A model generated the notes under the pieces. The model did not search any database. It was given only the letters and a program-made list of their open reading frames with translations, and was not told the origin of the DNA. DNA of 64,000 nucleotides from a phage, in the sequence record PZ445523.1; one strand, 5' to 3'. The position numbers and the translations under genes are program-made. How positions within the stretch are numbered: the stretch's first letter is position 1; every line of letters begins with the position of its first letter. This document shows positions 1,027 to 55,762 of this stretch, piece after piece.

Positions 1027-1140
1027 TCACATAAATCCAAAATAAACGTTTAATACATCAATCATTAAAACGATTGGGAATATACTCAAAACTACTAGTA
1101 TTATAACTACATTCCATATAGCTTTAATAATCTTTTTCAT
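1027..1140 (-). CDS. small membrane peptide (37 aa, MKKIIKAIWNVVIILVVL...)
   Basis: ATG at 1140 directly downstream of early promoter and GGAGGAACACAAA leader; upstream part of ORF-track entry 1027..1275 is a translated promoter. Confidence 0.4.
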   Translation of the reverse strand: MKKIIKAIWNVVIILVVLSIFPIVLMIDVLNVYFGFM

Positions 1141-1168
1141 TTTGTGTTCCTCCGTAGTTGATAGTTGT

Positions 1169-1198
1169 ATAATACCACAGAGGAACAGTCTTGTAAAC
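1169..1198 (-). promoter_or_regulatory. T4-type early promoter (GTTTAC -35, 18 nt spacer, TATTAT -10)
   Basis: plus strand shows ataata-N18-gtaaac, with A/T-rich UP-like tract upstream. Confidence 0.6.
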
Positions 1199-1383
1199 AA
1201 CTTTTTTAAAAATATTCGTAATAAATGTGAATACCAACTACTACCGCTGAAACCTGTGCAACCCACCACGCACAAGCAATAAGTACAGAATTCAAAATTT
1301 TCATAATAACCTCATCACAAAAGTAAATGTTAAACAAATTACTGGAATACTAATTAACCAAACAAAACACCACCATAATGAAC

Positions 1384-1652: not shown

Positions 1653-1859
1653 TCAATAATCCGCTAAAAGATCAACGATTGCATCACGAAGACACTTATT
1701 CGCAATACGTTTAAGAGCAATTTCAGTTTCTGGAGCATTTTGAATAATCATTGAATTCAATTCAGCCTCAGCAAACTGAAGTTCTTTAACTAATTCAGCT
1801 TTATATTTTCCTTGTCCTTTCTTAGCTTTTGCTCGTTTTAATTCAGCTGTAGTAAACAT
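1653..1859 (-). CDS. hypothetical protein (68 aa)
   Basis: ORF track trimmed to ATG at 1859 after GGAGAATAAA leader; early promoter just upstream. Confidence 0.5.
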   Translation of the reverse strand: MFTTAELKRAKAKKGQGKYKAELVKELQFAEAELNSMIIQNAPETEIALKRIANKCLRDAIVDLLADY

Positions 1860-1896
1860 TTTATTCTCCAAATCCGTATCAGTAGTTGATAGTTGT

Positions 1897-1926
1897 ATAG
1901 TACCACGGTCCTTGTGGTATGTAAAC
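1897..1926 (-). promoter_or_regulatory. T4-type early promoter
   Basis: atagta-N18-gtaaac on plus strand; CCAC...GTGG inverted repeat in spacer. Confidence 0.6.
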
Positions 1927-1941
1927 CGTTTTGTGAAATTT

Positions 1942-2499
1942 TTAAATGGAAAGATACCATCCGTTGTAGTTGCTTTTTCTTACAACCTTACGAAGGTCTT
2001 CTCTGTCACCGATGAACTTCGGAGTGTACTGGATGACACCTGGATGAATTTCTTTAGTGTTGAATATAATTATACAGTCAGCGACTTGATGATTTAGAAT
2101 GGGCCCTAGATTTATTCCAGAACCATATGGATACTCTCCGCTGCATCCTGTTGTCACCGAAATCCAACGTGAGTCAGTTTGATGTGTCTTAACTTCTACA
2201 CGAAGCCCACAGTATCTTGGATGTGCTAAAACATCCCATGCATATGTGTACGGATCATCGACATCTTCTTGACCTTTATTGACATATCCACTTAGCCAAT
2301 CTGCCACAAAAAACTCTGCGTACACAGCGATACGGCATCTTTCGATAACTTCTGCTTTATCCTGGTTCGGGTTTTGTTTTAAAGAATATCTTGCTGTATC
2401 AGCAATTTTGACCTTCATTTCACTAGTCAAGTCACTGTTCGATAGGGTAAATGTCGGAATCTGAAATAGTCTCTGTAACCCAGGATTCGTTTTCTGCAT
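1942..2499 (-). CDS. denB: endonuclease IV (DenB), 185 aa
   Basis: 185-aa ORF recognised as T4 DenB by sequence and by position next to rIIB. Confidence 0.8.
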   Translation of the reverse strand: MQKTNPGLQRLFQIPTFTLSNSDLTSEMKVKIADTARYSLKQNPNQDKAEVIERCRIAVYAEFFVADWLSGYVNKGQEDVDDPYTYAWDVLAHPRYCGLRVEVKTHQTDSRWISVTTGCSGEYPYGSGINLGPILNHQVADCIIIFNTKEIHPGVIQYTPKFIGDREDLRKVVRKSNYNGWYLSI

Positions 2500-9543: not shown

Positions 9544-9712
9544 AATTTCCTCATTAATTGAACATTGGAGCGATGCGTTTCAGAAGAGTATCAGCACCTT
9601 TAACGAATTATCCATTTTATTCTCCAAGTTGTTTTCTGTATCAGTAGTTGATATTGATATAGTACCATAATCAACTACTGATGTATATAGTTTTATGAAA
9701 AAATTTTAAACT

Positions 9713-10204
9713 TTATGCATAGCGAGCTTTGCTGTAGTGTTTAATCCAACTTTCAGGAATGACTTTGTATGTTCCTAAAAATACCGCGTTGTATAACTTA
9801 ACGCCATCTTCTACCCATTGATCAGTAATGTATGCACACACAGCGCGAGTACGCCGAGGAAGTGGTTGTCCACCTTCGGTAAATTCAAACTCATAAGGAG
9901 CAATGAACTTGATAGCTTGACCAAGTTTCCACTTAAAGTCTACACCTACATGCGAAGTATCAATCGTTTCAATTCCTTTAGCAGGAACATCTTTCAAAAA
10001 CGCAGGCTCAAGAAATTTCCATCGAACATAACCAAACTGGGGCTTAGACATTCCATCTTTAGCAATGATACGTACTTTTACTTCAGAATCTTCATCTTTA
10101 ACACCGTGTTTAAGCTGAATGCTTACAACTTCAACCAATTTTCCTGCTGCTTTAGAACGGGATTTATCAGATACACGAGCAATTTCGCCGATATTAATAT
10201 TCAT
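9713..10204 (-). CDS. motB: MotB-like protein (163 aa)
   Basis: Length and position match T4 motB; shares C-terminal module with next gene. Confidence 0.6.
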   Translation of the reverse strand: MNINIGEIARVSDKSRSKAAGKLVEVVSIQLKHGVKDEDSEVKVRIIAKDGMSKPQFGYVRWKFLEPAFLKDVPAKGIETIDTSHVGVDFKWKLGQAIKFIAPYEFEFTEGGQPLPRRTRAVCAYITDQWVEDGVKLYNAVFLGTYKVIPESWIKHYSKARYA

Positions 10205-10280
10205 AATTATCTCTCACTTGTTAAAAAGATTTTATACTCCACAGGACCATTATACTCTGGTCCCAAGAGTTTGTAAACTA

Positions 10281-10823: not shown

Positions 10824-10825
10824 AA

Positions 10826-11338
10826 TTATCTCATTTCAATAAAATCTATAAGTTCAGCATGGGATTTACGGAACATTACTTGGTGTCCGCCAATGATAAC
10901 TTCATCTTCAGGAACTTCATAAATCGCAATGTACATTCCACGATCTTTTAAGTCTTCACGCTCTTCTCGGGTGAACCATCTCATCATATCATATTCACTA
11001 GCGAAAGCAAAATGATATAATGAAATAAGCCACAATGGAATATAATTTTCAAATTGTGAGTAATCTTTATTCCATTTAGTTTTAATAGCATCATTAGCAT
11101 TTTCAACTAATAACTTATCATCATGCGGAATAGGAATACTTTCATGACTTTCATAATTATCGCTATGATGATGAAATGATGATGAATTAATACCGCAAAA
11201 TTTTAGCCAAGTTCGAGTTTTCATAGAATCAAATCCACGATAAGGAGTTGATTGAACGCATAACTCTTGCCTAATTTTCATTATACCACTATCATCATTT
11301 AATGCACTAAACGATGATTCAACACGATAAATTTTCAT
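10826..11338 (-). CDS. hypothetical protein (170 aa from ATG at 11338)
   Basis: ORF track trimmed: upstream portion is translated early promoter. Confidence 0.5.
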   Translation of the reverse strand: MKIYRVESSFSALNDDSGIMKIRQELCVQSTPYRGFDSMKTRTWLKFCGINSSSFHHHSDNYESHESIPIPHDDKLLVENANDAIKTKWNKDYSQFENYIPLWLISLYHFAFASEYDMMRWFTREEREDLKDRGMYIAIYEVPEDEVIIGGHQVMFRKSHAELIDFIEMR

Positions 11339-11365
11339 TTTATTATCCTCAGTAGCTATGGTGTT

Positions 11366-11395
11366 ATAGTACCACAACTAACCGAGGAAGTAAAC
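11366..11395 (-). promoter_or_regulatory. T4-type early promoter
   Basis: atagta-N18-gtaaac. Confidence 0.6.
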
Positions 11396-11401
11396 AACTT
11401 T

Positions 11402-12085
11402 TTATCGTTTTGTTGGAATAGATAGAGGATCGCATTCTTCCTCTGATGGAGCGTCTTCAAGACCCATAGCATATCGCAAAGCATACTTCATCATCAGGAT
11501 GTCTTTTGCACAGTCATGAATAGAATCATGTGCAACGAATCCATCTAAAGTTCCCTTTGGAAGAGGACATGTGGTCATATCACGAACAAGCAGAAGTGCT
11601 TCAATTCTGGTACGAATATCACGCTGATTCCAGAATTTACATGGTTCTAACTTAAATGTGTCAAGCTCATTCTCAGATACACCGTTAAGGCGTTGAATAT
11701 CACGAATGAGATCGACTAAAATTGGAAAATCAAACGACATTCCACGGCACCAGCCTTGAGATTTCCAAGGATCGATATTATGTGCATTGATGTAATCATT
11801 AAATTTTACAATACCATCGATAGTGCTTACATCTTCATCGGATGGTGCAATATTTTTTCGAGCTTCAGGGGATTGATTCTTCCACCATTCGATAGTGCTT
11901 TTAGTAAAAAGACGATGTCCTTTTTGGCTTTTTAAATCAAATTTGATTTTAATGCCACGTGAAACTAATTCATCAAACGTTTCAACGACTTCTGGATTAG
12001 GGTCAAAAGCAATTACAGCCAAATCAATAACCGCTGCTTTTTCACCACTTCCCATTGTTTCAAAATCTATAATAAAATCAAACAT
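11402..12085 (-). CDS. dexA: exonuclease A (DexA), 227 aa
   Basis: 227-aa ORF recognised as T4 DexA; gene order. Confidence 0.8.
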   Translation of the reverse strand: MFDFIIDFETMGSGEKAAVIDLAVIAFDPNPEVVETFDELVSRGIKIKFDLKSQKGHRLFTKSTIEWWKNQSPEARKNIAPSDEDVSTIDGIVKFNDYINAHNIDPWKSQGWCRGMSFDFPILVDLIRDIQRLNGVSENELDTFKLEPCKFWNQRDIRTRIEALLLVRDMTTCPLPKGTLDGFVAHDSIHDCAKDILMMKYALRYAMGLEDAPSEEECDPLSIPTKR

Positions 12086-12580: not shown

Positions 12581-12812
12581 ATTTAATCAGTAATTTACAA
12601 ACACTTTCATCTAATGTAATTACCGTATCTGTATTACTGTGATATGATTGTTTTTCAATTCGTTTAATTGCTAATATAGTATCACTTATAAGATAAAGCT
12701 TATGAAGGAGCTCAGCTCCTGTTACCATAACATTAAGATTATCTTGCTTATTAGTATGCTTCCTTATACCATCTATTAGACGATTTAAATATTTTGAATT
12801 GATGTTAATCAT
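12552..12812 (-). CDS. hypothetical protein (86 aa)
   Basis: ORF track; ATG. Confidence 0.45.
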   Translation of the reverse strand: MININSKYLNRLIDGIRKHTNKQDNLNVMVTGAELLHKLYLISDTILAIKRIEKQSYHSNTDTVITLDESVCKLLIKFEEAIRGNN

Positions 12813-12818
12813 ATATCC

Positions 12819-18692: not shown

Positions 18693-18714
18693 AAGGACTC
18701 CCGAAGGAGTCCTT
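18693..18714 (-). terminator. intrinsic terminator after soc (AGGACUCC-CGAA-GGAGUCCU stem-loop, UUCG loop on transcript)
   Basis: perfect 8-bp stem, tetraloop, U-rich tract on transcript. Confidence 0.65.
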
Positions 18715-19942: not shown

Positions 19943-19966
19943 ATTATACAATAAATATATAAAGCA
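19943..19966 (-). promoter_or_regulatory. MotA-dependent middle promoter (TGCTTTA box, 11 nt, TATAAT) for gene 56
   Basis: plus strand attata...taaagca. Confidence 0.5.
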
Positions 19967-19979
19967 ATAAGGAGGACAT

Positions 19980-26729: not shown

Positions 26730-27466
26730 TTCCACTCACCGTTATAATCTTTTTTCACAATATGAGTTTCGCCAGTATTCCACCAATGATCAACCAAGTA
26801 AAAATGACGAGAATATACATGAAGACTTCCAACATTCCATATAATAGAACCTGCTTTATACTGACGAGTTGAATCGCCTGCATTCAAATCAGATACTAAT
26901 TTATCTAATACGTATTTTTGCCATGCATAATCATTACGGAATCCGAAGACCACGTCATTTGAGCGCATGCTTACTACTGCATTGACTTTCTTATCACGAA
27001 TCAGGTACTGTACTGTATTAGTACACATGAAATCTGACATACCATCTTTATTGTAGTCAAATTGCATGGATGGACGAGTATAAATCATGATACCACGTCG
27101 AGAATCAGGATTTTGACCAAGTTCAGCTAAACACATATCATACTGAGCATAGTTATCTTCTGACCAGATAGCCCAACCATAATTCGAGTTAATTTCGCCT
27201 TTAGAAGATGCTACCTGCTGCCAAATCTTTGGTGTTTCACCTGGAATATCTTTAACAAACAAGCTTTTAGATTTATACCATTCAAGTTCACGCTGAATGT
27301 ATTCATCATTAAGAGCGCCAAAAATAAACGGTTCATCTGCTACAAATGATGCGCCAATAATTTCAATAGTTTTAACACCAGTTTTATCAACTACGAAATC
27401 TTTTTCTTTTAATGCAAGCCCCAAATGAAGACGGATTTCTTCAACTGTCATAGAGTCACTAATCAT
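26726..27466 (-). CDS. 42: dCMP hydroxymethylase gp42, 246 aa
   Basis: Thymidylate-synthase-like; recognised as T4 gp42. Confidence 0.9.
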   Translation of the reverse strand: MISDSMTVEEIRLHLGLALKEKDFVVDKTGVKTIEIIGASFVADEPFIFGALNDEYIQRELEWYKSKSLFVKDIPGETPKIWQQVASSKGEINSNYGWAIWSEDNYAQYDMCLAELGQNPDSRRGIMIYTRPSMQFDYNKDGMSDFMCTNTVQYLIRDKKVNAVVSMRSNDVVFGFRNDYAWQKYVLDKLVSDLNAGDSTRQYKAGSIIWNVGSLHVYSRHFYLVDHWWNTGETHIVKKDYNGEWK

Positions 27467-27619
27467 TTAAACCTCAATTGATACATTCATATTTAACTTG
27501 TAACAGTAATAAGCTCCAACCTAAAATAATAGTTGGAATCATAAGAGGAACCGTTACACTATAGTATATACTTATTATAATCATCAAGATTAAAAGCAAT
27601 GCTGCTATAATTTTGCTTT

Positions 27620-27871
27620 TCATTCCTTCTCTCTGATGATAATTACTTGATTTGGCTGTGCAGACTTTTTGGTTTCACCCGCAATTGACCAAATAAATGT
27701 AATAAACCAACCAATAATTGACCAGTTAAACAGTAAAGACGTGAAAAAGATTCCTACTGTCGATTTTGACCCACGCATCAAGGCGATAAACCATGGAAGC
27801 ATGTATATAATAATAGCCAACACACCTGAAACTAAAACCATAAAAATTGAACCTGCTACTAAAGTTTCCAT
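27620..27871 (-). CDS. imm: superinfection immunity membrane protein Imm (83 aa)
   Basis: 83-aa two-helix membrane protein; position downstream of gene 43. Confidence 0.75.
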   Translation of the reverse strand: METLVAGSIFMVLVSGVLAIIIYMLPWFIALMRGSKSTVGIFFTSLLFNWSIIGWFITFIWSIAGETKKSAQPNQVIIIREKE

Positions 27872-27878
27872 GTTTTCC

Positions 27879-28259
27879 TCACTTAGTCAAATTTTTTACA
27901 CATGAATTATAAGAATTCACTACATACTCCATCGGAGCATTTTTACCTGTACGCCATTGGTAATTATTAGCCCAATTTGCCCAAAGTTCAGCGCAGTAGT
28001 TTTCAATTTTTTCTTCGCGTGTAATTACATCCGAATTACGATATGCTTGAGCAGATTCATCTGGACGAATAGCTTCGTCAAAATTCGCCTGCATTTGTTC
28101 TACTGTCTGTTTTGGAGCTTCTTTATAACACTTGACATTAGGATTATAAAATTTGCTTGAACAGTTTACAATTTTTCCTACATCAGACTGATTTACTACC
28201 GGTCCTTGAGCTACACAACCAGTAAGACCTAATGCAATAACCAAAATAGCGATTTTCAT
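27879..28259 (-). CDS. putative lipoprotein, imm.1 position (126 aa from ATG at 28259)
   Basis: MKIAILVIALGLTGC signal and lipobox; ORF-track N-terminus is translated promoter. Confidence 0.5.
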   Translation of the reverse strand: MKIAILVIALGLTGCVAQGPVVNQSDVGKIVNCSSKFYNPNVKCYKEAPKQTVEQMQANFDEAIRPDESAQAYRNSDVITREEKIENYCAELWANWANNYQWRTGKNAPMEYVVNSYNSCVKNLTK

Positions 28260-28293
28260 TTCATTCTCCAAATCCGTATCAGTTGATAGTTGT

Positions 28294-28323
28294 ATAGTAC
28301 CACAGAGGAACAGTCTTGTAAAC
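28294..28323 (-). promoter_or_regulatory. T4-type early promoter
   Basis: atagta-N18-gtaaac. Confidence 0.6.
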
Positions 28324-28411
28324 AGTTTTGTGAAAAAATTTTTTAATGAATTCAAAGGGTCCAGAATCATCTGTTTTTCATAAGTATAGATTTATATTAC
28401 TTGTATGAAAA

Positions 28412-28429
28412 AGGGACCCGGAGGTCCCT
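28412..28429 (-). terminator. intrinsic terminator after gene 43
   Basis: agggacc-cgga-ggtccct hairpin followed by U-rich tract on transcript. Confidence 0.6.
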
Positions 28430-28441
28430 AGATTTATTCTA

Positions 28442-31138
28442 TCAGCCAAACAGGAAGTCTAACGAAGCTTTTTCTTCATAGTCCATACCAGCCGATTCAC
28501 ACATGCCTGCAAGCGGTTTAACAAACGATTTTTGGAACAAAGTTGAGTAGTCAATCCAAGACAGTACGTCAGAACGAATTTCCTTTGGAAGTTCTGTGCC
28601 CGACGGCCAAGCAATACACTTGTCACCAAATGGATTTCCTTCACGTAATGGAAGAACCATTACCTTATTTCCATCCAAAATTGGAGCTACACCCAGACCA
28701 CTAACAGCTCGACGATAAGTTAGCACACCACGAATATGGAACGGGCATTTAAATCCTGGCCAACCTTTATCATCATATTTCGCTATATCGTTCGCAGTTT
28801 TTACTTCAGCAATAACTTTATAGTCGAGTTGACGATATTCTTTCTCGAAGTTCTTGTAATATTCTTGGACAGACTCTTCACCTTCCTGAAGAATACGACG
28901 AATACTTTCTTCGAGAGCTTCTTGCACTGCCTTTGGTGTTGAACTCTGCTGAGTTTCCATACCCATGATTTTTAGATGCGGTTCAGCAAATCGCTTATCT
29001 TCCATATCATAAACGTTCAGAGCATAACGCTTTTTCGCTTTCCAAAATCCACCAACACCCTTTGAACCAAGCGGAGGGCAAGAAATAGCTTCACGGTCCA
29101 TATGCATCAGATGCTCGCGGTTATTCATATAATCACATAACTCACGATATGCAACATCAATCATAGGTTCCATCTTTTTCTTACCGAACTGATTCATGAA
29201 TTCAACCAAATCGTTCTGCTCTTTGAATCGGTCAAGACCTACTTTTTCAATAACTTTATCTACACAAACATATACCGAATCAGTATCACCTGCTGCGATG
29301 AAATCTTCATCATTAGTTCCGCATACTTTATTCAGATATTCATTAATTTTACGAGCAATCCACTGAATACCAACTTGGCCGAAAATTGTGATAGCAGTAG
29401 CATTTCGCAAATCATAGTAACGGAAATGAATATTACCAAGAGCACCATAAAGACTGTTAATGAGAATTTTACGGTTCAGCTGATTTGTATTAGCAAGTGT
29501 AGCCGCTTTTTCGCATTCCTCAATCAGACTATTGAGAACAGATTCAGTATAATTCGATAGTTCATTTAAGAAATCATCACTGAACTTAACATATCGTTCA
29601 ACTTCTGGTTTAGTTGAACAGGACCCTGCGCCTTTCATAATAATCTTTTTAATAGCTTCGGCATTCATTTCTTCAGCGAACATTTTCTTTTTCCAATCTT
29701 TACGCTGGAAAAATACTTTAGCGATTTCCTTTGGAATGATACCTTCTTGATGCTTATCATACATCCATCCATTCGGAGAACAAGAATATTCATCACTCGG
29801 TTTAGGAGCTGTTCCTGCGATATATTCATGAATTGGATGAACTTTAAACTGACCACGAATAGTCTCAGGACTAATGTTAACCTGACGAATAATGCTCGGA
29901 TACAGAGACGTCAAGTCAAAACTCATAATATATCGACGAGCAATTGGTTTAGGTTCAAATACAAATGCACCCGGAAAACTTTGTTTAACGTGCGAACCTT
30001 GTTGAGGAATAACCTTGTGTTCACCTTTCAATGAGTTAAAAATAATAGCATCCCAAGTTTTAATAGGACTCATTACACCAGAAAAAGGCATTTTAGCATA
30101 ATAAGACATACTTAAAACTAGATCGATAAACCCGCGAATTTTATCAATTGCTTGAACTGATTCTACGTCAATGATGTTATAACTAATGTATCGTTGATGA
30201 TTAGTCTCACGAAGTTTATTAATAGGACCGTCGTATGGTAATTTACCTTTTTTGGTTTCATGTTGAGCAACTGATTCCAAAGAGAATGACGGCAAATTAG
30301 TAAATGCGAACTTCTTGTACAAATCTAAATAATCAAGAATAGATACGCCATCAATAGAATAAATTTCTTTGCTACCGTACATATTTTGAATTAGTTTAGA
30401 TTTTACTCGACCGATTGGAGAGAAGCGTTTCATACTGCGTTCACCTAGAATCATTTTAACACGATTCATGATATACGGAACGTCAAATCCCTCAATATTC
30501 CAACCAGTAAAAATAGCAGGTCGTTTCTGTTCCCAGAGATTGATATATTCCATGAGCATATCACGCTCATTATCGAATGGCATATAAATTACTCGGTCAA
30601 GAATTTCTTGAGGAACTTCATCACCACCTTCACAGTCAAGCTTAGCAGCTAACTTTGCATCCCATTTTGATACTGAACCGTACATTGAATTCAAAAGGTC
30701 GAAAACATAAAAACGATCATCAATTGAATCGTAATGAGTGATAGCATCAATTTCATATTCTGCTTTCATTGGGTCAGGAAATTTATCACCGGTAACCTCA
30801 ATGTCACAGTTAGCTACACGAACAAATTTTCGGTCATAAACAATTTCTGAACCATATGTATCACTGATATAAGCGAGTTTAAAGTCGTTCATACCGAGAG
30901 CTTCGAGACCGATGTCTTCCATTCGCTTCATCCAATCTCGAGCATCTTTCATTGATGGAAATTTTTGAGGAGCGCAATTTTTACCATAAATGTCTTTGTA
31001 TTTTGACTCTTCCTTACAATGCCTAAACATAGTCGGAAGATATTCTACTTCACGAGTACGTTCCTTTCCGTTTTCATCAATATAACGTTCAACAATGTTA
31101 TTTCCGACTGTTTCGATAGAGATATAAAATTCTTTCAT
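28442..31138 (-). CDS. 43: DNA polymerase gp43 (family B), 898 aa
   Basis: 898-aa ORF recognised as T4 gp43. Confidence 0.95.
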   Translation of the reverse strand: MKEFYISIETVGNNIVERYIDENGKERTREVEYLPTMFRHCKEESKYKDIYGKNCAPQKFPSMKDARDWMKRMEDIGLEALGMNDFKLAYISDTYGSEIVYDRKFVRVANCDIEVTGDKFPDPMKAEYEIDAITHYDSIDDRFYVFDLLNSMYGSVSKWDAKLAAKLDCEGGDEVPQEILDRVIYMPFDNERDMLMEYINLWEQKRPAIFTGWNIEGFDVPYIMNRVKMILGERSMKRFSPIGRVKSKLIQNMYGSKEIYSIDGVSILDYLDLYKKFAFTNLPSFSLESVAQHETKKGKLPYDGPINKLRETNHQRYISYNIIDVESVQAIDKIRGFIDLVLSMSYYAKMPFSGVMSPIKTWDAIIFNSLKGEHKVIPQQGSHVKQSFPGAFVFEPKPIARRYIMSFDLTSLYPSIIRQVNISPETIRGQFKVHPIHEYIAGTAPKPSDEYSCSPNGWMYDKHQEGIIPKEIAKVFFQRKDWKKKMFAEEMNAEAIKKIIMKGAGSCSTKPEVERYVKFSDDFLNELSNYTESVLNSLIEECEKAATLANTNQLNRKILINSLYGALGNIHFRYYDLRNATAITIFGQVGIQWIARKINEYLNKVCGTNDEDFIAAGDTDSVYVCVDKVIEKVGLDRFKEQNDLVEFMNQFGKKKMEPMIDVAYRELCDYMNNREHLMHMDREAISCPPLGSKGVGGFWKAKKRYALNVYDMEDKRFAEPHLKIMGMETQQSSTPKAVQEALEESIRRILQEGEESVQEYYKNFEKEYRQLDYKVIAEVKTANDIAKYDDKGWPGFKCPFHIRGVLTYRRAVSGLGVAPILDGNKVMVLPLREGNPFGDKCIAWPSGTELPKEIRSDVLSWIDYSTLFQKSFVKPLAGMCESAGMDYEEKASLDFLFG

Positions 31139-31216: not shown

Positions 31217-31438
31217 TTAAATTAGTACTATTTGTCGGTGAAAAATTGTCATTCCATCTGCATTAATTGACTTAACGACTGCGGTAAAGTGTTTTTGTTC
31301 TGGATGAATTAATTTTTGAAATTCTACCTGAAATTTTAGTTGAAGGTTTTCTGGTAAATCAAAAAGTGTTTCTGTTGCAGAAAGATTATATTTTTCTTTA
31401 AGAGACGCCATGTATTCTTGCGGAGTTATAGCAGTCAT
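31217..31438 (-). CDS. hypothetical protein (73 aa) between regA and gene 43
   Basis: ATG at 31438 one nt after regA stop, no SD of its own. Confidence 0.4.
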   Translation of the reverse strand: MTAITPQEYMASLKEKYNLSATETLFDLPENLQLKFQVEFQKLIHPEQKHFTAVVKSINADGMTIFHRQIVLI

Positions 31439-31439
31439 A

Positions 31440-38094: not shown

Positions 38095-39295
38095 ATTTTG
38101 TAATAATGTCAAACTGTTCTTTAAAGCAGAAGCTTGAATCTTGATGCTGATACAAAAATTCATATGCTTTTTCACGTTCGCGGTCATAAAGAGCTCGGTC
38201 AGATGACAGTTCTTTAATACGTTCAAATGTTGATTCCATGTCATTTTCATCAAACCAAATGATACCGCTATCATGCGAGGTCAAAGGAGTATTATCAACA
38301 CGGAATTTTAAATTTTCGCCAGTAGATTTCCAAAATACCGGAATTGTTCCACATGCACCAAGCTCGAGATGAGTATATTCTAAAGAACGTTGTAGATATT
38401 TTTTGTCCAACTTACTCAACTGATAACCAAATCCGGATTTACTCATGCGTTCAAGCATTTCGCTATTTACATAACGGTCAAGAATTTGCGTTGGCAAATT
38501 AGGAGCAATTTTAATTTGGTCTACTTGATGAAGACGATAATACTCGTATGGAATTCCTTTTTCTTTAATAGGAATGAACGCTGGAGAACGTTCCAGACCT
38601 TCCATAATAGTACTTAGTCCTGCAGGTTTAAGATGTTTTTCATGAAAATCAAACATCTGATAAAAACCTTTCCATGTAGTCGTACGACCAATCCAACGGT
38701 TGATATTCATGTTAATTTCAGAAACATCTTTCCAGTATGTTGATCGAACCTTTGCAATATCCATCGGAGGCTGAAAGTTATATACGGTCGGTGCTTCTTC
38801 AATATCATCAAACAGAGAAACAGTTTCTGGATACCACTCTTTCATCAGAACTTTATTAAAATCACCATTATCAGAATGGCTAAAAATAATATCAGCTCGA
38901 CGAACAGTTTCTTCTAATCCCAAATTTCGACGCAAAGAAAGAGAAGAATGGTCATGCTGATAAACTACAACACGAACCGAAGGTTTAATGTTATCAATAA
39001 TTTTTTTATAGTTATTAATAGTGTCTTCTTCAACTGAAGTAGCAGGAACTGAATTGATAATTAGAATATCACAATCATTTACCAGCTTAAGTGTTTTATC
39101 GTATTCTTTTGCCAATAAAACCGGAATTGAAAATGATTTATAATCATGTGCACAGTTACGAGTAAATGATTTATCTTTAGCATAAACCAAAGTTACTTCA
39201 TGACCATTTTTAATAAACCAATCACGCTGCTCGAGTGAGAATTTTGTTACACCACAACCTTCAAGACCTCGAGCCATAAAAATACATACTTTCAT
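38093..39295 (-). CDS. a-gt: DNA alpha-glucosyltransferase, 400 aa
   Basis: 400-aa ORF recognised as T-even alpha-gt; position downstream of gene 55. Confidence 0.85.
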   Translation of the reverse strand: MKVCIFMARGLEGCGVTKFSLEQRDWFIKNGHEVTLVYAKDKSFTRNCAHDYKSFSIPVLLAKEYDKTLKLVNDCDILIINSVPATSVEEDTINNYKKIIDNIKPSVRVVVYQHDHSSLSLRRNLGLEETVRRADIIFSHSDNGDFNKVLMKEWYPETVSLFDDIEEAPTVYNFQPPMDIAKVRSTYWKDVSEINMNINRWIGRTTTWKGFYQMFDFHEKHLKPAGLSTIMEGLERSPAFIPIKEKGIPYEYYRLHQVDQIKIAPNLPTQILDRYVNSEMLERMSKSGFGYQLSKLDKKYLQRSLEYTHLELGACGTIPVFWKSTGENLKFRVDNTPLTSHDSGIIWFDENDMESTFERIKELSSDRALYDREREKAYEFLYQHQDSSFCFKEQFDIITK

Positions 39296-39319
39296 TTAAT
39301 ATCCTCTTTGTTTTGGTTT

Positions 39320-40789: not shown

Positions 40790-40867
40790 TTTCACCTCTT
40801 AGCTCAATTCATAGATCTATTATATCATAATATTTGAAGATCTATCTTAAAGCATAGAGGATATCAG

Positions 40868-41137
40868 TTATCTAAGTAAGCAGTATGCTTGGAACACTTT
40901 CTCCATCATCTTTTTAAATTCATGAATATCTATGTAATGATCATTAATATCAGCGCGATATAAAAAGTCTAAAAACTTTTTATGGGTATTAGAATATTTA
41001 CTTCCAGTTAATTCAGAAACATGGCTTTCCCAATATCCAACACCAGTTTTATTTGGGAAAAATGAAATTTTCATGTATTGGTCAACATAGAAAATACCAA
41101 AATTTTCAATAGCAATAGAAATATTAATTAATTTCAT
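40868..41137 (-). CDS. hypothetical protein (89 aa)
   Basis: ORF track. Confidence 0.45.
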   Translation of the reverse strand: MKLINISIAIENFGIFYVDQYMKISFFPNKTGVGYWESHVSELTGSKYSNTHKKFLDFLYRADINDHYIDIHEFKKMMEKVFQAYCLLR

Positions 41138-43639: not shown

Positions 43640-44110
43640 TTAATCATGTGTCCACCCCTCATCGGTATTTGACCAAAGTCGCTGATTATCTGATCCTCGC
43701 CACAGCTTTTTGGTAGGAAGATTTTTCTCATACTTCCCATCAATAATAACATCAACATATTTAAGCATTTCTAGTTGTTTAATATCTTCAAACTTATATC
43801 CTGTCCACAACCAAATGCTTTTATTGGGATAAAGATTTTTAATAGTTTGAACCACAGAGTGAATCACGTCTCTGTTATCAGGATAAAGAGGGTCTCCTCC
43901 AGTTATAGTTAATCCTTCTATATAATCATTATTCAAACATTCAATTAATTGCTCTAGTGTTTCACCAGTGAATGGAATGCCATTTCTAGCATTCCATGTT
44001 GATTTATTATAACACCCTTCACATTTATGCAAACAACCTGTAACGAAAAGAACGACCCTGCAACCAGGGCCATTCACAAAATCGCAAGGATAAAATCTAT
44101 CATAATTCAT
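43640..44110 (-). CDS. nrdG: anaerobic ribonucleotide reductase activase NrdG (radical SAM), 156 aa
   Basis: CxxxCxxC-type cluster CLHKCEGC; ATGA overlap with nrdD. Confidence 0.85.
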   Translation of the reverse strand: MNYDRFYPCDFVNGPGCRVVLFVTGCLHKCEGCYNKSTWNARNGIPFTGETLEQLIECLNNDYIEGLTITGGDPLYPDNRDVIHSVVQTIKNLYPNKSIWLWTGYKFEDIKQLEMLKYVDVIIDGKYEKNLPTKKLWRGSDNQRLWSNTDEGWTHD

Positions 44111-45924
44111 TGGTGTTTAACCCTATGCATGATTTCTTTATTTTTACCGAGATTAAATCCGCGTTCGTTCGGATTTCCCAAATAACCACATGTTCTTCTT
44201 ATTGTGTTCATCTTTTTAGGATCAGTTTCTCCACAAATAGAACAAACAAATCCGTTTTCAGTAGGAGTCATTTCATGGGTACTTCCGCATGTAAAACATT
44301 TATCTACCGGCATGTTAACACCAAAATAATCTAAATGTTGTGCAGCATAATCCCATACGGCCTCAAGACCTTTTAAGTTATTTTTCATATCAGGAAGTTC
44401 AACATAAGAAATGTGACCACCTGTCGCAATGAAATGATATGGTGCTTCGCGGGAAATCTTTTCAAACGGAGTAATATTTTCTTCTACTGAAACATGGAAA
44501 CTGTTAGTGTACCAGCCTTTATCGGTAACATCTTTTACGCTTCCATATTTTTCGGTATCGAGTTTACAGAAGCGATAACAAAGGTTTTCAGCAGGAGTCG
44601 AATATAAACTAAAAGCAAATCCGGTTCTTTCAGTCCACTGTTTAAGATGAGCATTCATTTTAGTTAAAATTTCTCGTCCAATATCACGACCGACAAGAAT
44701 ATTCAATTCGTGAATACCAATGTATCCTAAAGACACTGAACTTCTACCATTTTTAAATAACTCAATTATGTCGTCATCAGGTTTAAGACGAACCCCGAAT
44801 GCACCTTCTTGGTAAAGAATAGGAGCAACAGTTGCTTTAACTCCTTTTAAGGAACTAATTCTACACATCAAAGCTTCAAAACACAAATCCATTCGTTCAT
44901 TAAATAGCTCAACAAATTTCTGTTCATTGAACTGTGTTCCAATATAAGAATCTAACGCGATGCGAGGAAGATTCAGTGTTACAACACCAAGATTATTACG
45001 TCCATCAAGAATTTCATTGCCAGTCGAATCTTTCCATACGCTCAAGAAACTACGGCAACCCATTGGAGAAACAGGAACAGATGAACCAGTGATAGCTTTA
45101 TTGTTCTTAGCTGAAATAATATCAGGATACATCCTTTTGCTTGCACACTCTAGAGCAAGCTGTTTAATATCATAGTTCGGATCGTCTTTATAAAGATTAA
45201 CACCTTCTTCAACAAACATAACAAGCTTAGGGAAAATAGGAGTTATCCCATCACGACCAAGACCTTTAATACGATTTTTCAGAATTGCTTTCTGAATCAT
45301 TCGTTCAGTCCAGTCAGTTCCCGTACCAAATGTAATTGTTACAAAAGGCGTTTGTCCGTTTGAACTAAAGAGAGTATTTACTTCATATTCATAAGCTTGG
45401 AATGCATCGTATACGTCTTTTTCTGTTTTAGATTGAGCATAATTCAACGCATCGGCGATTTGCCATTTTTCTGCATCCTCAATGTGTTTTGCATAGGTGC
45501 GTTTAACATAAGGAGAAAGTACTTTATCTACATTCGCAAAAGTCGTTCCGCCGTATTGGTGAGAAGCAACCTGCGCAGTAATTTGTGCCATAATCGCAGT
45601 AGCAACGCCAATTGATTTAGGGGTTTCAATCTGCGCATTACCTAGCTTAAATCCGTTCTCAAGCATTCCTTTTAAATCTACTAAACAGCAATTAGTAAAT
45701 GGAAGAGCAGGGGAATAATCAATATCGTGGAAATGGATAATTCCGCTTTCATGTGCTTTCATAATAAAAGACGGGACCATATTTTTGGCAATGTGTTTAG
45801 ACACAATACCAGCCATAAGGTCCCGTTGAGTTGGAAAAACACGAGAATCTTTATTAGCATTCTCGTTTAAAAGGTCTTTATTAGTTTTATGAATCAATCC
45901 TTCAATTTCTTTTTCAATTGTCAT
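44107..45924 (-). CDS. nrdD: anaerobic ribonucleoside-triphosphate reductase NrdD, 605 aa, uninterrupted
   Basis: 605-aa continuous ORF with C-terminal CxxC...CxxC and glycyl-radical region; no intron-like interruption. Confidence 0.9.
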   Translation of the reverse strand: MTIEKEIEGLIHKTNKDLLNENANKDSRVFPTQRDLMAGIVSKHIAKNMVPSFIMKAHESGIIHFHDIDYSPALPFTNCCLVDLKGMLENGFKLGNAQIETPKSIGVATAIMAQITAQVASHQYGGTTFANVDKVLSPYVKRTYAKHIEDAEKWQIADALNYAQSKTEKDVYDAFQAYEYEVNTLFSSNGQTPFVTITFGTGTDWTERMIQKAILKNRIKGLGRDGITPIFPKLVMFVEEGVNLYKDDPNYDIKQLALECASKRMYPDIISAKNNKAITGSSVPVSPMGCRSFLSVWKDSTGNEILDGRNNLGVVTLNLPRIALDSYIGTQFNEQKFVELFNERMDLCFEALMCRISSLKGVKATVAPILYQEGAFGVRLKPDDDIIELFKNGRSSVSLGYIGIHELNILVGRDIGREILTKMNAHLKQWTERTGFAFSLYSTPAENLCYRFCKLDTEKYGSVKDVTDKGWYTNSFHVSVEENITPFEKISREAPYHFIATGGHISYVELPDMKNNLKGLEAVWDYAAQHLDYFGVNMPVDKCFTCGSTHEMTPTENGFVCSICGETDPKKMNTIRRTCGYLGNPNERGFNLGKNKEIMHRVKHQ

Positions 45925-52990: not shown

Positions 52991-53518
52991 TTATGCGAGT
53001 ACCGTCTTTAACCGTTCTTCAAACTTCCGAAGAGTATTCTGGCGTTCAGCTCTTTGCTTTTTGTAAGTTTCAATACGCTCTGAAATGAGAGTGTATCGTT
53101 CATTTACTGATTCTTTCATAAAATCAGGAATTTCACGAGAAGCTTTAATCTCGTCAAATTTATCAATAACAGCTTGCTCTTCAGCAATTAAGTTATCATA
53201 CATCAAAATATCTTTCTTGATGAACTCAATATCTTCTTGAGTTACACGAGATAACTTAGATGCTTTATCCTTTTTGTACTGTTCGTTAGTATCACGAGAC
53301 CAGTGTAATGTACGATTTTTATTCGTATTCTTGTAAATTTCTACAATACCAATCTCATCAATAATAACGATCCAATTCCAACGGGATTTGTAAATTTGTC
53401 CTCCATCAACAGTGATTTCACCTCCGATTGAGATGTCATTAAAGAACTTGCTTTGTGCTTCAGATTTAAATTTACCATCGTTGTAATTTACCAGGTTGAA
53501 AATATCTTTAGCGTTCAT
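52991..53518 (-). CDS. hypothetical protein (175 aa from ATG at 53518)
   Basis: ORF track trimmed: upstream part is translated promoter/leader; GGAGGA SD. Confidence 0.5.
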   Translation of the reverse strand: MNAKDIFNLVNYNDGKFKSEAQSKFFNDISIGGEITVDGGQIYKSRWNWIVIIDEIGIVEIYKNTNKNRTLHWSRDTNEQYKKDKASKLSRVTQEDIEFIKKDILMYDNLIAEEQAVIDKFDEIKASREIPDFMKESVNERYTLISERIETYKKQRAERQNTLRKFEERLKTVLA

Positions 53519-53546
53519 TTTGTGTTCCTCCGTAGTTGATAGTTGT

Positions 53547-53576
53547 ATAGTACCACAGAGGAACGGTCTTGTAAAC
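53547..53576 (-). promoter_or_regulatory. T4-type early promoter
   Basis: atagta-N18-gtaaac; near-identical to cassette at 1141-1200. Confidence 0.6.
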
Positions 53577-53578
53577 AA

Positions 53579-53893
53579 CTAAAAGAAACTTCTTTCACAA
53601 TTTTTTCCACTGAACCACGCGCTCACTGCTTTCTTAGTCTCAGGAGCAGTATTATCCATAAACCATTCAAAGGCAGCCTTTTTATGATTCTGGAGGGCTT
53701 CTCGGGCTTTAATCTGCTCACGGTCTATTAACACTAACATATGAGCCTTTCTTGTCACCATGGGCTTCTTATGATTTTTTGAATACTCCCAATCATTTGT
53801 CCATCGCATCGTTGTTGCGAACTGGAATACAGCTTCTTTAATTTTAGTTTCGTAAATTTCACGAGCCTTTGAGTATAACATCACTACCTCCAT
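53579..53893 (-). CDS. hypothetical protein (104 aa)
   Basis: ORF track. Confidence 0.45.
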   Translation of the reverse strand: MEVVMLYSKAREIYETKIKEAVFQFATTMRWTNDWEYSKNHKKPMVTRKAHMLVLIDREQIKAREALQNHKKAAFEWFMDNTAPETKKAVSAWFSGKNCERSFF

Positions 53894-54683: not shown

Positions 54684-55648
54684 TTTAATAATACCGTTTC
54701 AGCAATTTCTTCCCAATGGTTTTTGTCGGTCATAATAAAGTCAGCAAGATAAAGTGCAGTACGCAGTGAAACATTGCGTAAACGATTAACATTGACTTTC
54801 ATCCATGATAATGCTTTATAAGTTTCTTCATCAGAAAGACCGCGCTTTTGCATCATGTCAGTTGAAAGAATAACATCTTCAACCCTGACCATAATTTCTT
54901 CATTAGTGTGAACACCCAAATCTAAATAAACTGAGCGGGACACTAATGCTTGTAAATGTGGAGCAAGTTTAGTACCACGGTCTAATTCGCGGTCAATATC
55001 AACGTTTGTGATAAAAACAATCGTTCCTTTAAATTCAAACTCACGCTCAATGCCTTTTTCTTCTAAGTAAGAAGATGCAGTGCTCCAGCAGACTTTACGG
55101 GTCTCTCCAGTGTCCAGAGCAGCTTTCAGAAGATTAAGAATGTCCATATCAGAGAAAACATCCACATCATCAATCAAAAGGACAGAATTCTCTTCACGAT
55201 TATTCCAAAGCTGTTCATAAAGACCGATACCAGAGATTTTACCATTAATGCTTTTATACTCAATGTATCCAATATCATTTGCTTTATTCAAAGCTTTATC
55301 TAAAGAATACGTTTTACCAATACCTGCCGCACCAGAGATAATTAATGAACGAATGTTTCCGTTAATAATACCATTCGTCATCATTCCCATAACATTAAAT
55401 CTTTTATTAATGCGGGTTTTCATATCTTCATATGATTCTTTAACTTCTTCAACTTTTACACCATCATATGAAATGTCTGATTTGTAAACCCAAACACCGC
55501 GACGTTTACCATCAATTTCAACAAAAACTTTACCGTCTCCTTGTGCATCTACCGGAGCATTATCTGGGAACCATTCGCCTAAGAGCTCAAAAGTTCCAGA
55601 AATTTCTTTACCGAAGTAGATACCCTTATTGATAGTTACAGTTTTCAT
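54680..55648 (-). CDS. P-loop NTPase (AAA-like), 322 aa from ATG at 55648
   Basis: Walker A GAAGIGKT, Walker B LLIDDVD, sensor-like FITNVD; ORF-track N-terminus is translated promoter/terminator. Confidence 0.6.
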   Translation of the reverse strand: MKTVTINKGIYFGKEISGTFELLGEWFPDNAPVDAQGDGKVFVEIDGKRRGVWVYKSDISYDGVKVEEVKESYEDMKTRINKRFNVMGMMTNGIINGNIRSLIISGAAGIGKTYSLDKALNKANDIGYIEYKSINGKISGIGLYEQLWNNREENSVLLIDDVDVFSDMDILNLLKAALDTGETRKVCWSTASSYLEEKGIEREFEFKGTIVFITNVDIDRELDRGTKLAPHLQALVSRSVYLDLGVHTNEEIMVRVEDVILSTDMMQKRGLSDEETYKALSWMKVNVNRLRNVSLRTALYLADFIMTDKNHWEEIAETVLLK

Positions 55649-55682
55649 TTTATTCTCCAAATCCGTATCAGTTGATAGTTGT

Positions 55683-55712
55683 ATAGTACCATAAAGCTTT
55701 ATGCTTGTAAAC
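55683..55712 (-). promoter_or_regulatory. T4-type early promoter
   Basis: atagta-N18-gtaaac. Confidence 0.6.
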
Positions 55713-55742
55713 AACTTTGTGAAAAATTTTTGAAATAAAAAA

Positions 55743-55762
55743 GGGGAGCCCGAAGGCTCCCC
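55743..55762 (-). terminator. intrinsic terminator (GGGGAGCC-UUCG-GGCUCCCC plus U tract)
   Basis: ggggagcccgaaggctcccc followed on transcript by a long U run. Confidence 0.7.

Follow-up and report, generated by a model that had tools for sequence, protein, structure and literature searches.

PeSL-like early promoter-leader cassettes and polymorphic gene slots in the early region of a Tequatrovirus

A repeat of about 70 bp, built from a T4 early promoter and a stem-loop, was reportedly described by Repoila et al. in 1994 as flanking small ORFs that are shuffled among T-even phages. The cassettes discussed here share that promoter-repeat design, but the repeats were reportedly described only for the two internal-protein (IP) loci, both outside the window (the whole stretch of phage DNA analyzed, 64,000 nucleotides of record PZ445523.1). 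Composite terminator/promoter cassettes of a related kind, the promoter-early-stem-loops (PeSLs), flank ORFans in coliphages RB49 and phi1, where transcriptionally insulated modules are lost or gained by crossovers that fall either in the AT-rich tract or between the -10 element and the ATG (Arbiol et al. 2010, PMC2839356). For the RB49 PeSLs, minicircles as well as promoter and terminator activity were demonstrated experimentally, and the authors speculated that a helper protein might act at the stem-loop. Those cassettes belong to a different genus, Krischvirus, and carry near-perfect TTGACA/TATAAT elements and polyG/polyC stems. For T4 and Yersinia phage PST, too, PeSLs have been described; their consensus is TTTACW-N17-TAYWAT, and an exchange of ndd.4/.5 serves as the worked example (Comeau, Arbiol & Krisch 2014, PMC4122927). 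The PeSL reading of such repeats, including those of T4/PST and of the ndd locus, is thus already known.

The genes of the window lie on the minus strand and make up an early region of Tequatrovirus (T4-like) type. Identity to Tequatrovirus genomes is 93-98%, the stretch between ndd and regB is collinear with that of T4, and positions 1-2600 are matched best by PST. The initial annotation proposed that promoter-leader blocks recur at five places, and repeats were indeed recovered at all of them, each on the minus strand. A repeat search placed 1128-1225, 28253-28350, 53506-53603 and 55642-55739 in one family, to which 1884-1943 was added. The 21-mer GTTGATAGTTGTATAGTACCA is present with at most one mismatch at all five sites and with three mismatches at 9647, and these six matches in the window compare with none in 100 shuffles. 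Promoter scanning of the window returned 22 early-type sites on the minus strand versus five weak ones on the plus strand, and no Rfam family matched anywhere in the window. T4 has the same cassettes upstream of ndd.6, ndd.4, imm.1, nrdC.8 and nrdC.10, and also of motA and e.8. In the GenBank phage collection, the family occupies 1398 places in 505 phage records. Population counts were drawn from this collection instead of IMG/VR, which was too thin for a population survey (21 loci on about eight contigs by 21-mer scan, and eight loci by denB protein search).

Every copy has the same order of parts: an A/T-rich, UP-like tract, a -35 element TTTACA, a 17-nt spacer that ends in TGn, a -10 element TACTAT or TATTAT, and a 30-40-nt leader with SD and ATG. 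All five fit the PST/T4 PeSL consensus given above, with TG ahead of the -10, and all five match the extended consensus of the T4 'uber' early promoters, namely UP, -35, TGn and -10 (review PMC2988021). From this match and from orthology to T4, each cassette is predicted to be an active promoter. The genes behind them, with ORF starts at 1140, 1859, 28259, 53518 and 55648, are ndd.4, an accessory ORF below denB, imm.1, nrdC.8 and nrdC.10. The likeness to the T4/PST PeSLs covers the genus, the A/T tract, the promoter consensus, the SD and the ATG, as well as a location next to indels in hyperplastic regions, and the published set includes degraded 'half' PeSLs (PMC4122927). The match to published PeSL cassettes proposed at the outset is largely borne out by T4-type promoter/leader anatomy and by coincident gene-content polymorphism.

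The blocks had also been called almost verbatim copies, which overstates their similarity. Compared over their 91-100 nt, A/T tract through ATG, pairs of copies are 61-82% identical (mean 74%), against an average of 61% for 13 other early promoters of the window. Exact words common to copies are 16-40 nt long, and only TATACAACTATCAACT is common to all five. The exact shared stretches comprise the core TGGTACTATACAACTATCAACT, parts of the leader, and the terminator/UP/-35 half. Overall, the family is a mosaic in which one common core is combined with spacers of three types and leaders of two. The A-type leader, CTGATACGGATTTGGAGAAT(A/G)AAATG, is found at 1857, 28257 and 55646, and the B-type leader, CTACGGAGGAACACAAAATG, at 1138 and 53516.

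The focal cassette (28257..28353, minus strand, as are the other cassettes, the hairpins and the denB cargo below) lies upstream of imm.1 (ORF 27879-28259), as does its T4 orthologue. Its A/T tract spans 28324-28353, its -35 TTTACA 28322-28317 and, after the 17-nt spacer, its -10 TACTAT 28299-28294; the leader carries GGAG at 28269-28266 and ends with the ATG at 28259-28257. This copy is a chimera that joins a B-type spacer (AAGACTGTTCCTCTGTGG) to an A-type leader. An A-type cassette just below denB (1857..1956) drives ORF-a, includes the denB stop codon (1942-1944) within its A/T tract, has a dyad ACCACAAGGACCGTGGT in its spacer, and ends its leader with GGAGAATAAAATG. The A-type cassette upstream of nrdC.10 (55646..55742; ORF 54680-55648) has a palindrome, CATAAAGCTTTATG, in its spacer and the same leader 3′ end. 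The B-type cassette upstream of ndd.4 (1138..1228; ORF 1027-1140) overlaps, with its A/T tract, the stop codon (1206-1208) of an ndd.5-like ORF, and its spacer GTTCCTCTGTGG is complementary to the SD-containing leader CTACGGAGGAAC. The B-type cassette upstream of nrdC.8 (53516..53606; ORF 52991-53518) shows the same spacer/leader complementarity, and its A/T tract overlaps the nrdC.9 stop codon (53579-53581).

Spacer and leader types have been recombined across loci and genomes. At the gene 43 locus, one spacer is found with the B leader in T2 and with the A leader in the window. Likewise, the denB locus has a single spacer, which the window, T2 and T4 combine with the A leader, and JEP6 and IME537 with a B-like one. 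Two spacer alleles, TTCTTCC(G/A) and TTCCTCTG, form a patchwork over the ndd.4 and imm.1 loci of five genomes. Moreover, the ndd.4 cassette of the window is 97% identical to the T4 nrdC.8 cassette and differs from T4's own ndd.4 copy. The ndd.4 and nrdC.8 cassettes sit in conserved contexts, but they have spacer alleles in common, and this patchwork suggests ectopic conversion.

These observations bear on an alternative in which selection alone explains the likeness. Each copy would independently have to be a very strong early promoter carrying both an optimal SD and a RegB/S1 site, the similarity would reflect convergence or conservation of function without any part in recombination, and nearby indels would be coincidental. 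The extended T4 early-promoter consensus (PMC2988021) and the A-type leader end, which corresponds to the RegB/S1 consensus, both agree with such convergence, as do the two cassettes with fully conserved contexts and the identity of about 61% that other early promoters already have among themselves. However, 'uber' promoters and RegB/S1 targets are functional classes rather than repeat families, and membership in them leaves the shared non-consensus sequence unexplained. The copies share stretches for which no consensus role is known, among them ACAACTATCAACTGATACGGATTT and entire 18-nt spacers, and identical spacer alleles recur at different loci in a genome-specific patchwork. Also speaking against selection alone are indel junctions that fall within the cassette, modules placed between two cassette copies, and a truncated cassette carried with its module into another genus (see below). 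We consider this explanation unlikely.

A PeSL, as defined for T4/PST, has a stem-loop just upstream, and here the copies differ. The nrdC.10 cassette is directly abutted by a terminator hairpin with a UUCG tetraloop and a trailing U run (GGGGAGCC-UUCG-GGCUCCCC; 55743..55762); seven pairs of its 8-bp stem are G-C, and together the two form the only complete stem-loop-plus-promoter unit among the five. The claim that several cassettes directly follow UUCG hairpins was accordingly too broad, since only the 55.7-kb copy abuts one. Behind gene 43, a terminator-like hairpin, AGGGACC-UCCG-GGUCCCU with a U run (28412..28429), has the loop UCCG, not UUCG, and lies about 59 nt upstream of the focal A/T tract, hence not adjacent to it. 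No terminator-like hairpin is found within 110 nt upstream of the copies at 1138-1228, 1857-1956 and 53516-53606; these three overlap an upstream stop codon instead and are promoter/leader halves, not complete PeSLs. Assignment of the family to the PeSLs is favored by the promoter, the leader and an association with indels at three of the five copies, and is weakened by the abutting stem-loop being present in one copy only.

Gene content was compared with T4, T2, JEP6, IME537 and JK23, of which only four served as whole-window comparators. Universal conservation without a breakpoint at the repeats is not what these genomes display at three of the five cassettes (denB, gene 43/imm.1 and nrdC.10), where gains, losses or replacements of different ORF modules have their junctions inside the cassette. 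By contrast, the four whole-window comparators all have the same context, and no breakpoint, at the ndd.4 and nrdC.8 cassettes. The denB slot has four states (window, T4, T2, and JEP6/IME537), with junctions at the ATG or within the leader. In the window its cargo consists of two ORFs without a Pfam match, ORF-a (1653-1859, 68 aa) and ORF-b (1384-1647, 87 aa). Both are absent from T4, ORF-b from T2, and ORF-a from JEP6 and IME537. A leader remnant, CGGATTATTGAGTAAAATG, is retained at the 3′ end of ORF-a. The imm.1 slot is empty in the window, T4, IME537 and UAB_60, is occupied by an ORF of 78-85 aa in JK23 and JEP6, and holds an unrelated 83-aa ORF in T2.

The nrdC.10 slot is empty in the window and in T4. 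In JEP6 it contains a two-ORF DUF4031 module between two promoters, and IME537 has the JEP6-type module with the first -35 deleted. T2 carries a ModA-like module between two copies of hairpin plus UP plus GTTTAC, and this module is 97% identical in Gelderlandvirus STML-198, where a truncated A-type cassette follows it. Most cargo ORFs have no Pfam match. Cargo frequencies are intermediate among the approximately 505 records (65 and 329, 317, 154 and 44); these figures count cargo presence, in place of empty versus occupied imm.1 junctions. Of the genes suggested to be recently exchanged cargo, only ORF-a and ORF-b (1384-1859) are clear accessory cargo here, and the imm.1 and nrdC.10 slots are empty in this phage. 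One record, MZ375356, gave the shortest match at the ndd locus and was considered as a natural cassette-to-cassette deletion; it was set aside as a labelled mutant T4 clone of 151,790 bp that resembles a reduced-genome construct.

Eight of 72 indel endpoints fall in the five cassettes, compared with 0.59 expected under a uniform model (p = 1.6e-7). Nevertheless, 33 of 39 indel events lie away from the five cassettes, and many indels elsewhere are precise whole-ORF insertions at stop/start overlaps without a cassette, or homing-endonuclease genes. Against a gene-boundary null (about 100-110 boundaries in the window), the excess at the five cassettes is about 1.7-fold and not significant, by a rough estimate rather than a computed test. 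The enrichment of indels at cassettes over this null is modest. Overlaps at the junctions are short, at 7-19 nt, and at this length microhomology-driven illegitimate recombination combined with selection for expression is inseparable from homologous exchange.

Perhaps the cassettes are passive landing pads, in that ORF-sized microhomology indels arise everywhere at gene starts through SD/ATGAAA-type repeats and survive preferentially just behind a strong promoter. If so, the cassettes would mark cargo tolerance rather than homology-catalysed recombination. The short overlaps are compatible with this view, particularly as several are at ATGAAAAT and not deeper in the cassette, and so are the other window-specific insertions, which are precise whole-ORF insertions at stop/start overlaps lacking a cassette, and the weak, partly roughly estimated enrichment over gene boundaries. 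However, the T2 and JEP6 modules in the nrdC.10 slot lie between two cassette copies of about 35-60 nt, as homologous exchange predicts, and the 14 other early promoters show no enrichment of breakpoints (two endpoints versus 1.7 expected). The minicircles and the crossovers between -10 and ATG established experimentally for RB49 PeSLs (PMC2839356) also argue against landing pads. We regard this explanation as possible but doubtful.

The polymorphism might instead be a by-product of co-conversion of flanking DNA by nearby free-standing homing-endonuclease genes during mixed infections. Such genes make up many of the other indels in the window (segF, mobB, mobC, mobD and I-TevII). A Seg-like GIY-YIG ORF (53964-54683) sits between the nrdC.8 and nrdC.10 cassettes in the window and in IME537 and is missing from T4 and JEP6, and JK23 and UAB_60 have an intron-like endonuclease gene by gene 42, about 1.5 kb from imm.1. 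Yet no endonuclease is encoded in the cassette-slot modules, and there is no such gene near the denB locus. Furthermore, the presence of the Seg-like ORF and the state of the nrdC.10 slot are unlinked: IME537 has both, JEP6 has the module without the endonuclease gene, and the window has the endonuclease gene without the module. Co-conversion appears quite unlikely as the source of the polymorphism.

It seems highly improbable that the cassettes are the ends or attachment sites of a dedicated mobile element, a site-specific system of integron type that brings its own recombinase. Short repeats that flank gene cassettes do recall such systems, as does the helper-protein speculation for RB49 (PMC2839356), but no recombinase is associated with the modules. 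Junctions lie behind the -35 or the -10, within the leader or right at the ATG. Because their positions vary along the cassette, homology-guided exchange fits and cleavage at a fixed site does not, and an integron-like mechanism was rejected.

The five blocks are thus very probably paralogous Tequatrovirus early expression cassettes that act as portable recombination homology, as in the PeSL model. The mechanism that we infer would operate as follows. Host sigma-70 RNA polymerase would fire the cassettes immediately after infection, each driving the first small gene behind it. Since the copies share exact stretches of 16-40 nt, they could serve the phage recombination system as portable homology, both between loci and between co-infecting relatives. 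A crossover within a cassette would insert, delete or replace an ORF module without depriving any gene of its promoter and ribosome-binding site, and crossovers would also homogenize cassette parts between loci.

Our analysis independently recovers the PeSL mechanism in a further Tequatrovirus and leaves existing knowledge unchanged. To this it adds an allelic series at three slots and one cross-genus module transfer. It also flags ORF-a and ORF-b as accessory cargo and shows that, in relatives, additional ORFans, a DUF4031 module or a ModA-like ADP-ribosyltransferase occupy the imm.1 and nrdC.10 slots. Such a slot map helps annotation and the choice of insertion sites for phage engineering.

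Three features described here are absent from PMC4122927: the two leader types, the RegB site and the spacer/leader complementarity. The RegB/S1 cleavage consensus of efficiently cleaved T4 early mRNAs is GGAGAAUAAAA, and the target is a single-stranded 11-nt site composed of GGAG and an A-rich heptamer. On the minus strand, GGAGAAUAAAA is exact at 1869, 9625 and 55658 and has one mismatch at 28269. The A-type leaders end with GGAGAAUAAAAUG, which is the RegB/S1 consensus and thus predicts that expression comes in a burst, after which the mRNA is rapidly inactivated; the correspondence is exact in the nrdC.10 leader. RegB would then be expected to cleave A-type leaders. The B-type leaders (GGAGGAACACA) deviate from the consensus, and nrdC.8, which is B-type, is reportedly cleaved only moderately by RegB.

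Complementarity between the leader and the -35/-10 spacer is seen in the B-type cassettes and at many further early promoters. The predicted hairpin has the spacer as its 5′ arm, the -10 in its loop and the first transcribed nucleotides as its 3′ arm, and the SD lies within the 3′ arm in ndd.4, nrdC.8, motB.2 and regB. Computed folds of the two B-type copies have stems of 13-14 bp and energies of -19 to -20 kcal/mol (z -4.2 and -5.4), with four of four SD bases paired. The A-type copies were also considered as hairpins that sequester the ribosome-binding site and were rejected, as their folds are no better than those of shuffles (z 0.3 to 1.2). A promoter's own spacer/leader duplex is stronger than swapped pairs (-11.8 versus -8.3 kcal/mol; permutation p < 5e-5). 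Of 73 cases, 68 have a sense strand of greater stability than the antisense strand, with 213 G-U pairs. Among B-type orthologues, covariation is confined to one-sided or wobble changes. The dmd/mobD.2 family has a 15-bp stem that is 100% paired, five pairs of which are altered on both sides. An upstream terminator accompanies none of eight strong-hairpin promoters versus five of ten weak ones.

Because the 5′ arm is present only in read-through transcripts initiated upstream, the hairpin would be a post-transcriptional insulator. We tentatively speculate that many Tequatrovirus early promoters lie inside an RNA hairpin of this kind, as a functional alternative to a terminator. In that event, either translation of each gene would be confined to transcripts of its own promoter or the mRNA from upstream would acquire a protective 3′ structure, and the joint travel of spacer and leader as one cassette would be explained. 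Hairpins that sequester the ribosome-binding site and contain an internal promoter have been reviewed for T4 genes e, soc, 49 and I-TevI, all late-promoter cases (PMC3014915). By analogy, a B-type SD may be paired in the long transcript and free in the internal-promoter transcript, which has no 5′ arm. Those genes use a late internal promoter to impose a temporal delay, whereas the B-type cassettes have an early promoter whose own spacer is the predicted 5′ arm. The promoter-embedded hairpin is the only potentially new angle of this work, and older T4 literature may already describe it.

A weaker sixth member of the family lies upstream of cef (9613..9722) and has a degenerate -35, TATACA. A 13-bp inverted repeat, ATCAGTAGTTGAT...ATCAACTACTGAT, surrounds its -10, and its leader ends with GGAGAATAAAATG and opens an 11-codon mini-ORF. 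In T2, the ORF in the cef slot is longer by 200 bp.

The five promoter-leader blocks listed in the initial annotation are genuine repeats and were recovered by a repeat search of the window. The 21-mer GTTGATAGTTGTATAGTACCA matches all five sites with at most one mismatch and a further site at 9647 with three, and it gave no match in 100 shuffles. Because all genes in the window are carried on the minus strand, the blocks need to be read as reverse complements. In that orientation, each opens with an A/T-rich tract and GTTTACA; the 17-nt spacer that follows ends in TGG and leads to TACTAT (TATTAT in the copy at 1198), the core ACAACTATCAACT, a leader containing GGAG, and finally an ATG. The genes behind these cassettes, all on the minus strand and named by orthology to T4, are ndd.4 (ATG at 1140), imm.1 (28259, behind the focal cassette), nrdC.8 (53518), and nrdC.10 (55648); the remaining cassette precedes an accessory ORF below denB (1859).

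The description of these copies as almost verbatim does not hold. Whole-block identity is 61-82% (mean 74%), compared with an average of 61% for 13 early promoters elsewhere in the window, and the exact words common to the copies span 16-40 nt. The family is a mosaic of one common core, three spacer types, and two leader types, termed A-type (CTGATACGGATTTGGAGAATAAAATG) and B-type (CTACGGAGGAACACAAAATG). The focal copy (28257-28353) is itself a chimera, with a B-type spacer and an A-type leader. A weaker sixth copy (9613-9722, minus strand) lies upstream of cef, and this slot is also variable, being 200 bp longer in T2. The cef copy has a degenerate -35 element (TATACA), its -10 element lies between the arms of a perfect 13-bp inverted repeat (ATCAGTAGTTGAT / ATCAACTACTGAT), and it opens only an 11-codon mini-ORF where T2 has an 89-aa ORF. 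In addition, the initial 12 nt (ATGAAAATCGCT) are the same in imm.1 and ndd.6, and thus cassette homology reaches four codons into genes that are unrelated to each other.

The window comes from the early-gene region of a T4-like myovirus of the genus Tequatrovirus, and chained blastn alignments reveal collinearity with T4 from ndd (T4 165.6 kb) via rIIA to regB (T4 ~63 kb). Positions 1-12000 include ndd, denB, rIIB, rIIA, gene 39, and dexA, and the best match to 1-2600 is Yersinia phage PST. The region 27000-30000, which carries DNA polymerase, imm.1, imm, and gene 42, is ~98% identical to hundreds of T4-like phages of Escherichia, Shigella, Yersinia, and Salmonella. Relative to T4, this phage is missing dam (and segF), mobB, mobC, and the nrdD intron with I-TevII, and its gene 39/60 topoisomerase subunit is unsplit (606 aa, without the mobA/gene 60 insertion); the corresponding sites are 19948-19969, 6207-8027, 39286-39311, 44090-44110, and 45386-45389.

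Promoter-early-stem-loop (PeSL) cassettes are already known for Tequatrovirus, and the interpretation in the initial annotation agrees with a model published for this same genus. In RB49 and phi1, a PeSL comprises an upstream stem-loop terminator, an AT-rich tract, a sigma-70-like promoter, an SD, and an ATG; promoter and terminator activities were demonstrated, and minicircles carried crossovers between the -10 element and the ATG or SD (Arbiol et al. 2010, PMC2839356). The model was extended to T4 and Yersinia phage PST with the consensus TTTACW-N17-TAYWAT, and degraded "half" PeSLs were described, with the ndd.4/.5 exchange as an example (Comeau et al. 2014, PMC4122927). Repoila et al. 1994 are credited in both papers (PMC2839356, PMC4122927) with the same idea at internal-protein loci.

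Although the cassette type was assigned correctly, and gene shuffling is evident at three of the five copies, just one of them represents a complete PeSL. Several copies had been said to directly follow UUCG hairpins, but this is true only of the copy at 55.7 kb (hairpin 55743-55762). For the focal copy, the nearest terminator is that of gene 43, which has a UCCG loop and lies ~59 nt upstream. The remaining three have no hairpin within 110 nt upstream, and in each of them the stop codon of the preceding ORF overlaps the A/T tract. Elsewhere, UUCG-loop hairpins of the CUCC-UUCG-GGAG type at 18695-18709 and 59465-59479 (minus strand) directly precede two unlisted early promoters (-35 elements at 18679 and 59449), which, judged by the stem-loop, resemble a PeSL more closely than do three of the five copies above.

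Whole homologous regions of T4, T2, JEP6, and IME537, each chained to the window, were compared, as were the focal regions only of JK23, UAB_60, and STML-198. The suggestion that cassette-flanked genes are exchanged cargo is borne out for the slots (first-gene positions) at denB, imm.1, and nrdC.10, but not for ndd.4 and nrdC.8, whose contexts are conserved with no breakpoint at either cassette in T4, T2, JEP6, or IME537. At denB, the same promoter half precedes four different states: ndd.6 directly in T4, ORF-b in JEP6 and IME537, ORF-a then ndd.6 in T2, and ORF-a (1653-1859), ORF-b (1384-1647), then ndd.6 in the window. The junctions fall at the ATG (9-nt overlap) or within the leader at 1879, and a decayed leader copy (CGGATTATTGAGTAAAATG) is kept at the 3′ end of ORF-a. 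In the window, ndd.6 (1384-1410, minus strand) has shrunk to eight codons (MKIAEIEL*), in frame as the C-terminus of ORF-b.

At imm.1, the cassette is fused directly to the gene in the window, T4, IME537, and UAB_60. JK23 and JEP6 have a 78-85-aa ORF inserted, and T2 carries an unrelated 83-aa ORF with a complete B-type cassette ahead; imm.1 retains its own SD (GAGGAAATTATTATG) in every occupied state. The clearest case of module exchange is nrdC.10. There, JEP6 has a two-ORF module, one ORF being DUF4031, with an early promoter on both sides, the first identical to that of the window through TACTATACAACTATCAA. IME537 carries the JEP6-type module behind a "half PeSL" whose promoter lacks the UP and -35 elements, and T2 has a ModA-like module between two copies of a hairpin plus TTTTATTTCAAAAATTTTTCACAAA and GTTTAC. 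In the IME537 half cassette, the terminator 3′ arm is fused to the spacer (~58060-58720 in the concatenated sequence). The slots of the phage studied here are mostly "empty", without such modules.

Among ~505 cassette-bearing records, every cargo segment occurs at intermediate frequency: ORF-a and ORF-b together in 65 and either one in 329, the JK23-type ORF in 317, the DUF4031 module in 154, and the ModA-like module in 44. The records with the last include Gelderlandvirus STML-198, in which the module is 97% identical to that of T2 and has a truncated A-type cassette (TACTATACAACTATCAACTGATACGGATTCGGAGAATAAAAT) behind it. This case is good evidence that cassette pieces travel between genera along with modules. 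The STML-198 half cassette (930-990 of the fetched region) is a hairpin remnant fused to TACTATACAACTATCAACTGATACGG directly after the module. Furthermore, the ndd.4 and imm.1 loci of the five genomes carry the two spacer alleles TTCTTCC(G/A)TGG and TTCCTCTGTGG in a patchwork distribution, and at one locus the same promoter half carries different leader types in different phages. The ndd.4 cassette of the window is 97% identical to the T4 nrdC.8 cassette, whereas the ndd.4 copy of T4 itself departs from it around the -10 element. Crossovers in the shared core would produce such a patchwork.

Across the four whole-region comparators, 39 separate indels or replacements were identified, and six of these events touch three of the five cassettes. 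Under a uniform model, 8 of 72 endpoints fall in cassettes versus 0.59 expected (p = 1.6e-7), and 14 other early promoters hold 2 versus 1.7 expected. However, a gene-dense phage can tolerate breakpoints only between genes. Against the ~100-110 boundaries in the window, the excess at the cassettes is by rough estimate only ~1.7-fold. Most events lie away from cassettes, at dam, whole-ORF insertions, and homing-endonuclease genes (segF, mobB, mobC, mobD, I-TevII, and a Seg-like ORF). The Seg-like GIY-YIG ORF (53964-54683, minus strand; 239 aa), between nrdC.9 and nrdC.10, is present in IME537 (annotated as an intron-like endonuclease) and absent from T4 and JEP6. The case for a recombination role of the cassettes is thus carried by the anatomy of the junctions more than by the number of events. 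A passive landing pad, in which cassettes would mark sites of tolerated cargo rather than drive recombination, is a less likely but plausible reading.

Small ORFs at 12590-12818, 31221-31439, 40863-41122, 8368-8727, and 61386-61752, missing from some or all four comparators, are inserted exactly at stop/start overlaps, and no promoter cassette is present at these junctions. ORFs are thus also gained and lost in a second way that does not involve the cassettes.

In T4 early mRNAs, the sites that RegB/S1 cleaves efficiently have the 11-nt consensus GGAGAAUAAAA in common, and cleavage of nrdC.8 is only moderate (Durand et al. 2006). The A-type leader carries the exact consensus at 1869 and 55658, as does the cef copy at 9625 (minus strand), and it occurs nowhere else on either strand of the window; the focal copy has one mismatch at 28269 (minus strand). 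B-type leaders have GGAGGAACACA at this position. Because the A-type leader coincides with the RegB/S1 consensus, leader conservation is likely in part under selection. Perhaps A-type cassettes serve as "burst then shut-off" expression units.

Predicted hairpins embedded in early promoters are a lead rather than a discovery. In the T4 reviews consulted (PMC3014915), RBS-sequestering hairpins are listed only around late promoters (e, soc, 49, I-TevI). The B-type spacer GUUCCUCUGUGG is predicted to pair with the leader CUACGGAGGAAC in a 13-14-bp stem (-19 to -20 kcal/mol; z = -4.2 and -5.4), with the -10 element in the loop and the SD fully paired. Such a hairpin is possible only in RNA reading through from upstream, because transcripts that begin at the expected site would lack its 5′ arm. 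No such stem is predicted for the A-type copies, the focal one among them (z between 0.3 and 1.2), in keeping with their chimeric origin and with the terminator that lies upstream of two of them.

The same architecture is found at many other early promoters, such as those upstream of regB, motB.2, dmd, mobD.2, and motB.1. Own spacer/leader duplexes are much stronger than swapped ones (-11.8 vs -8.3 kcal/mol; permutation p < 5e-5), and in 68 of 73 promoter instances drawn from five genomes the sense strand gives a more stable fold than the antisense, with 213 G-U pairs. In the dmd/mobD.2 family, the 15-bp stem has 105 of 105 cells paired, with five pairs changed on both sides. Within the window, an upstream terminator accompanies none of eight strong hairpin promoters versus five of ten weak ones. 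The strong set (predicted dG <= -18; minus strand) has -35 elements at 63838, 58657, 53576, 22854, 16596, 11395, 10278, and 1198. In seven of these, the stem joins the spacer to the earliest transcribed nucleotides, leaving the -10 element in the loop, and the SD is paired in four (regB, motB.2, ndd.4, and nrdC.8); the hairpin at 16596 differs in having a stem from the -10 region to the SD/ATG.
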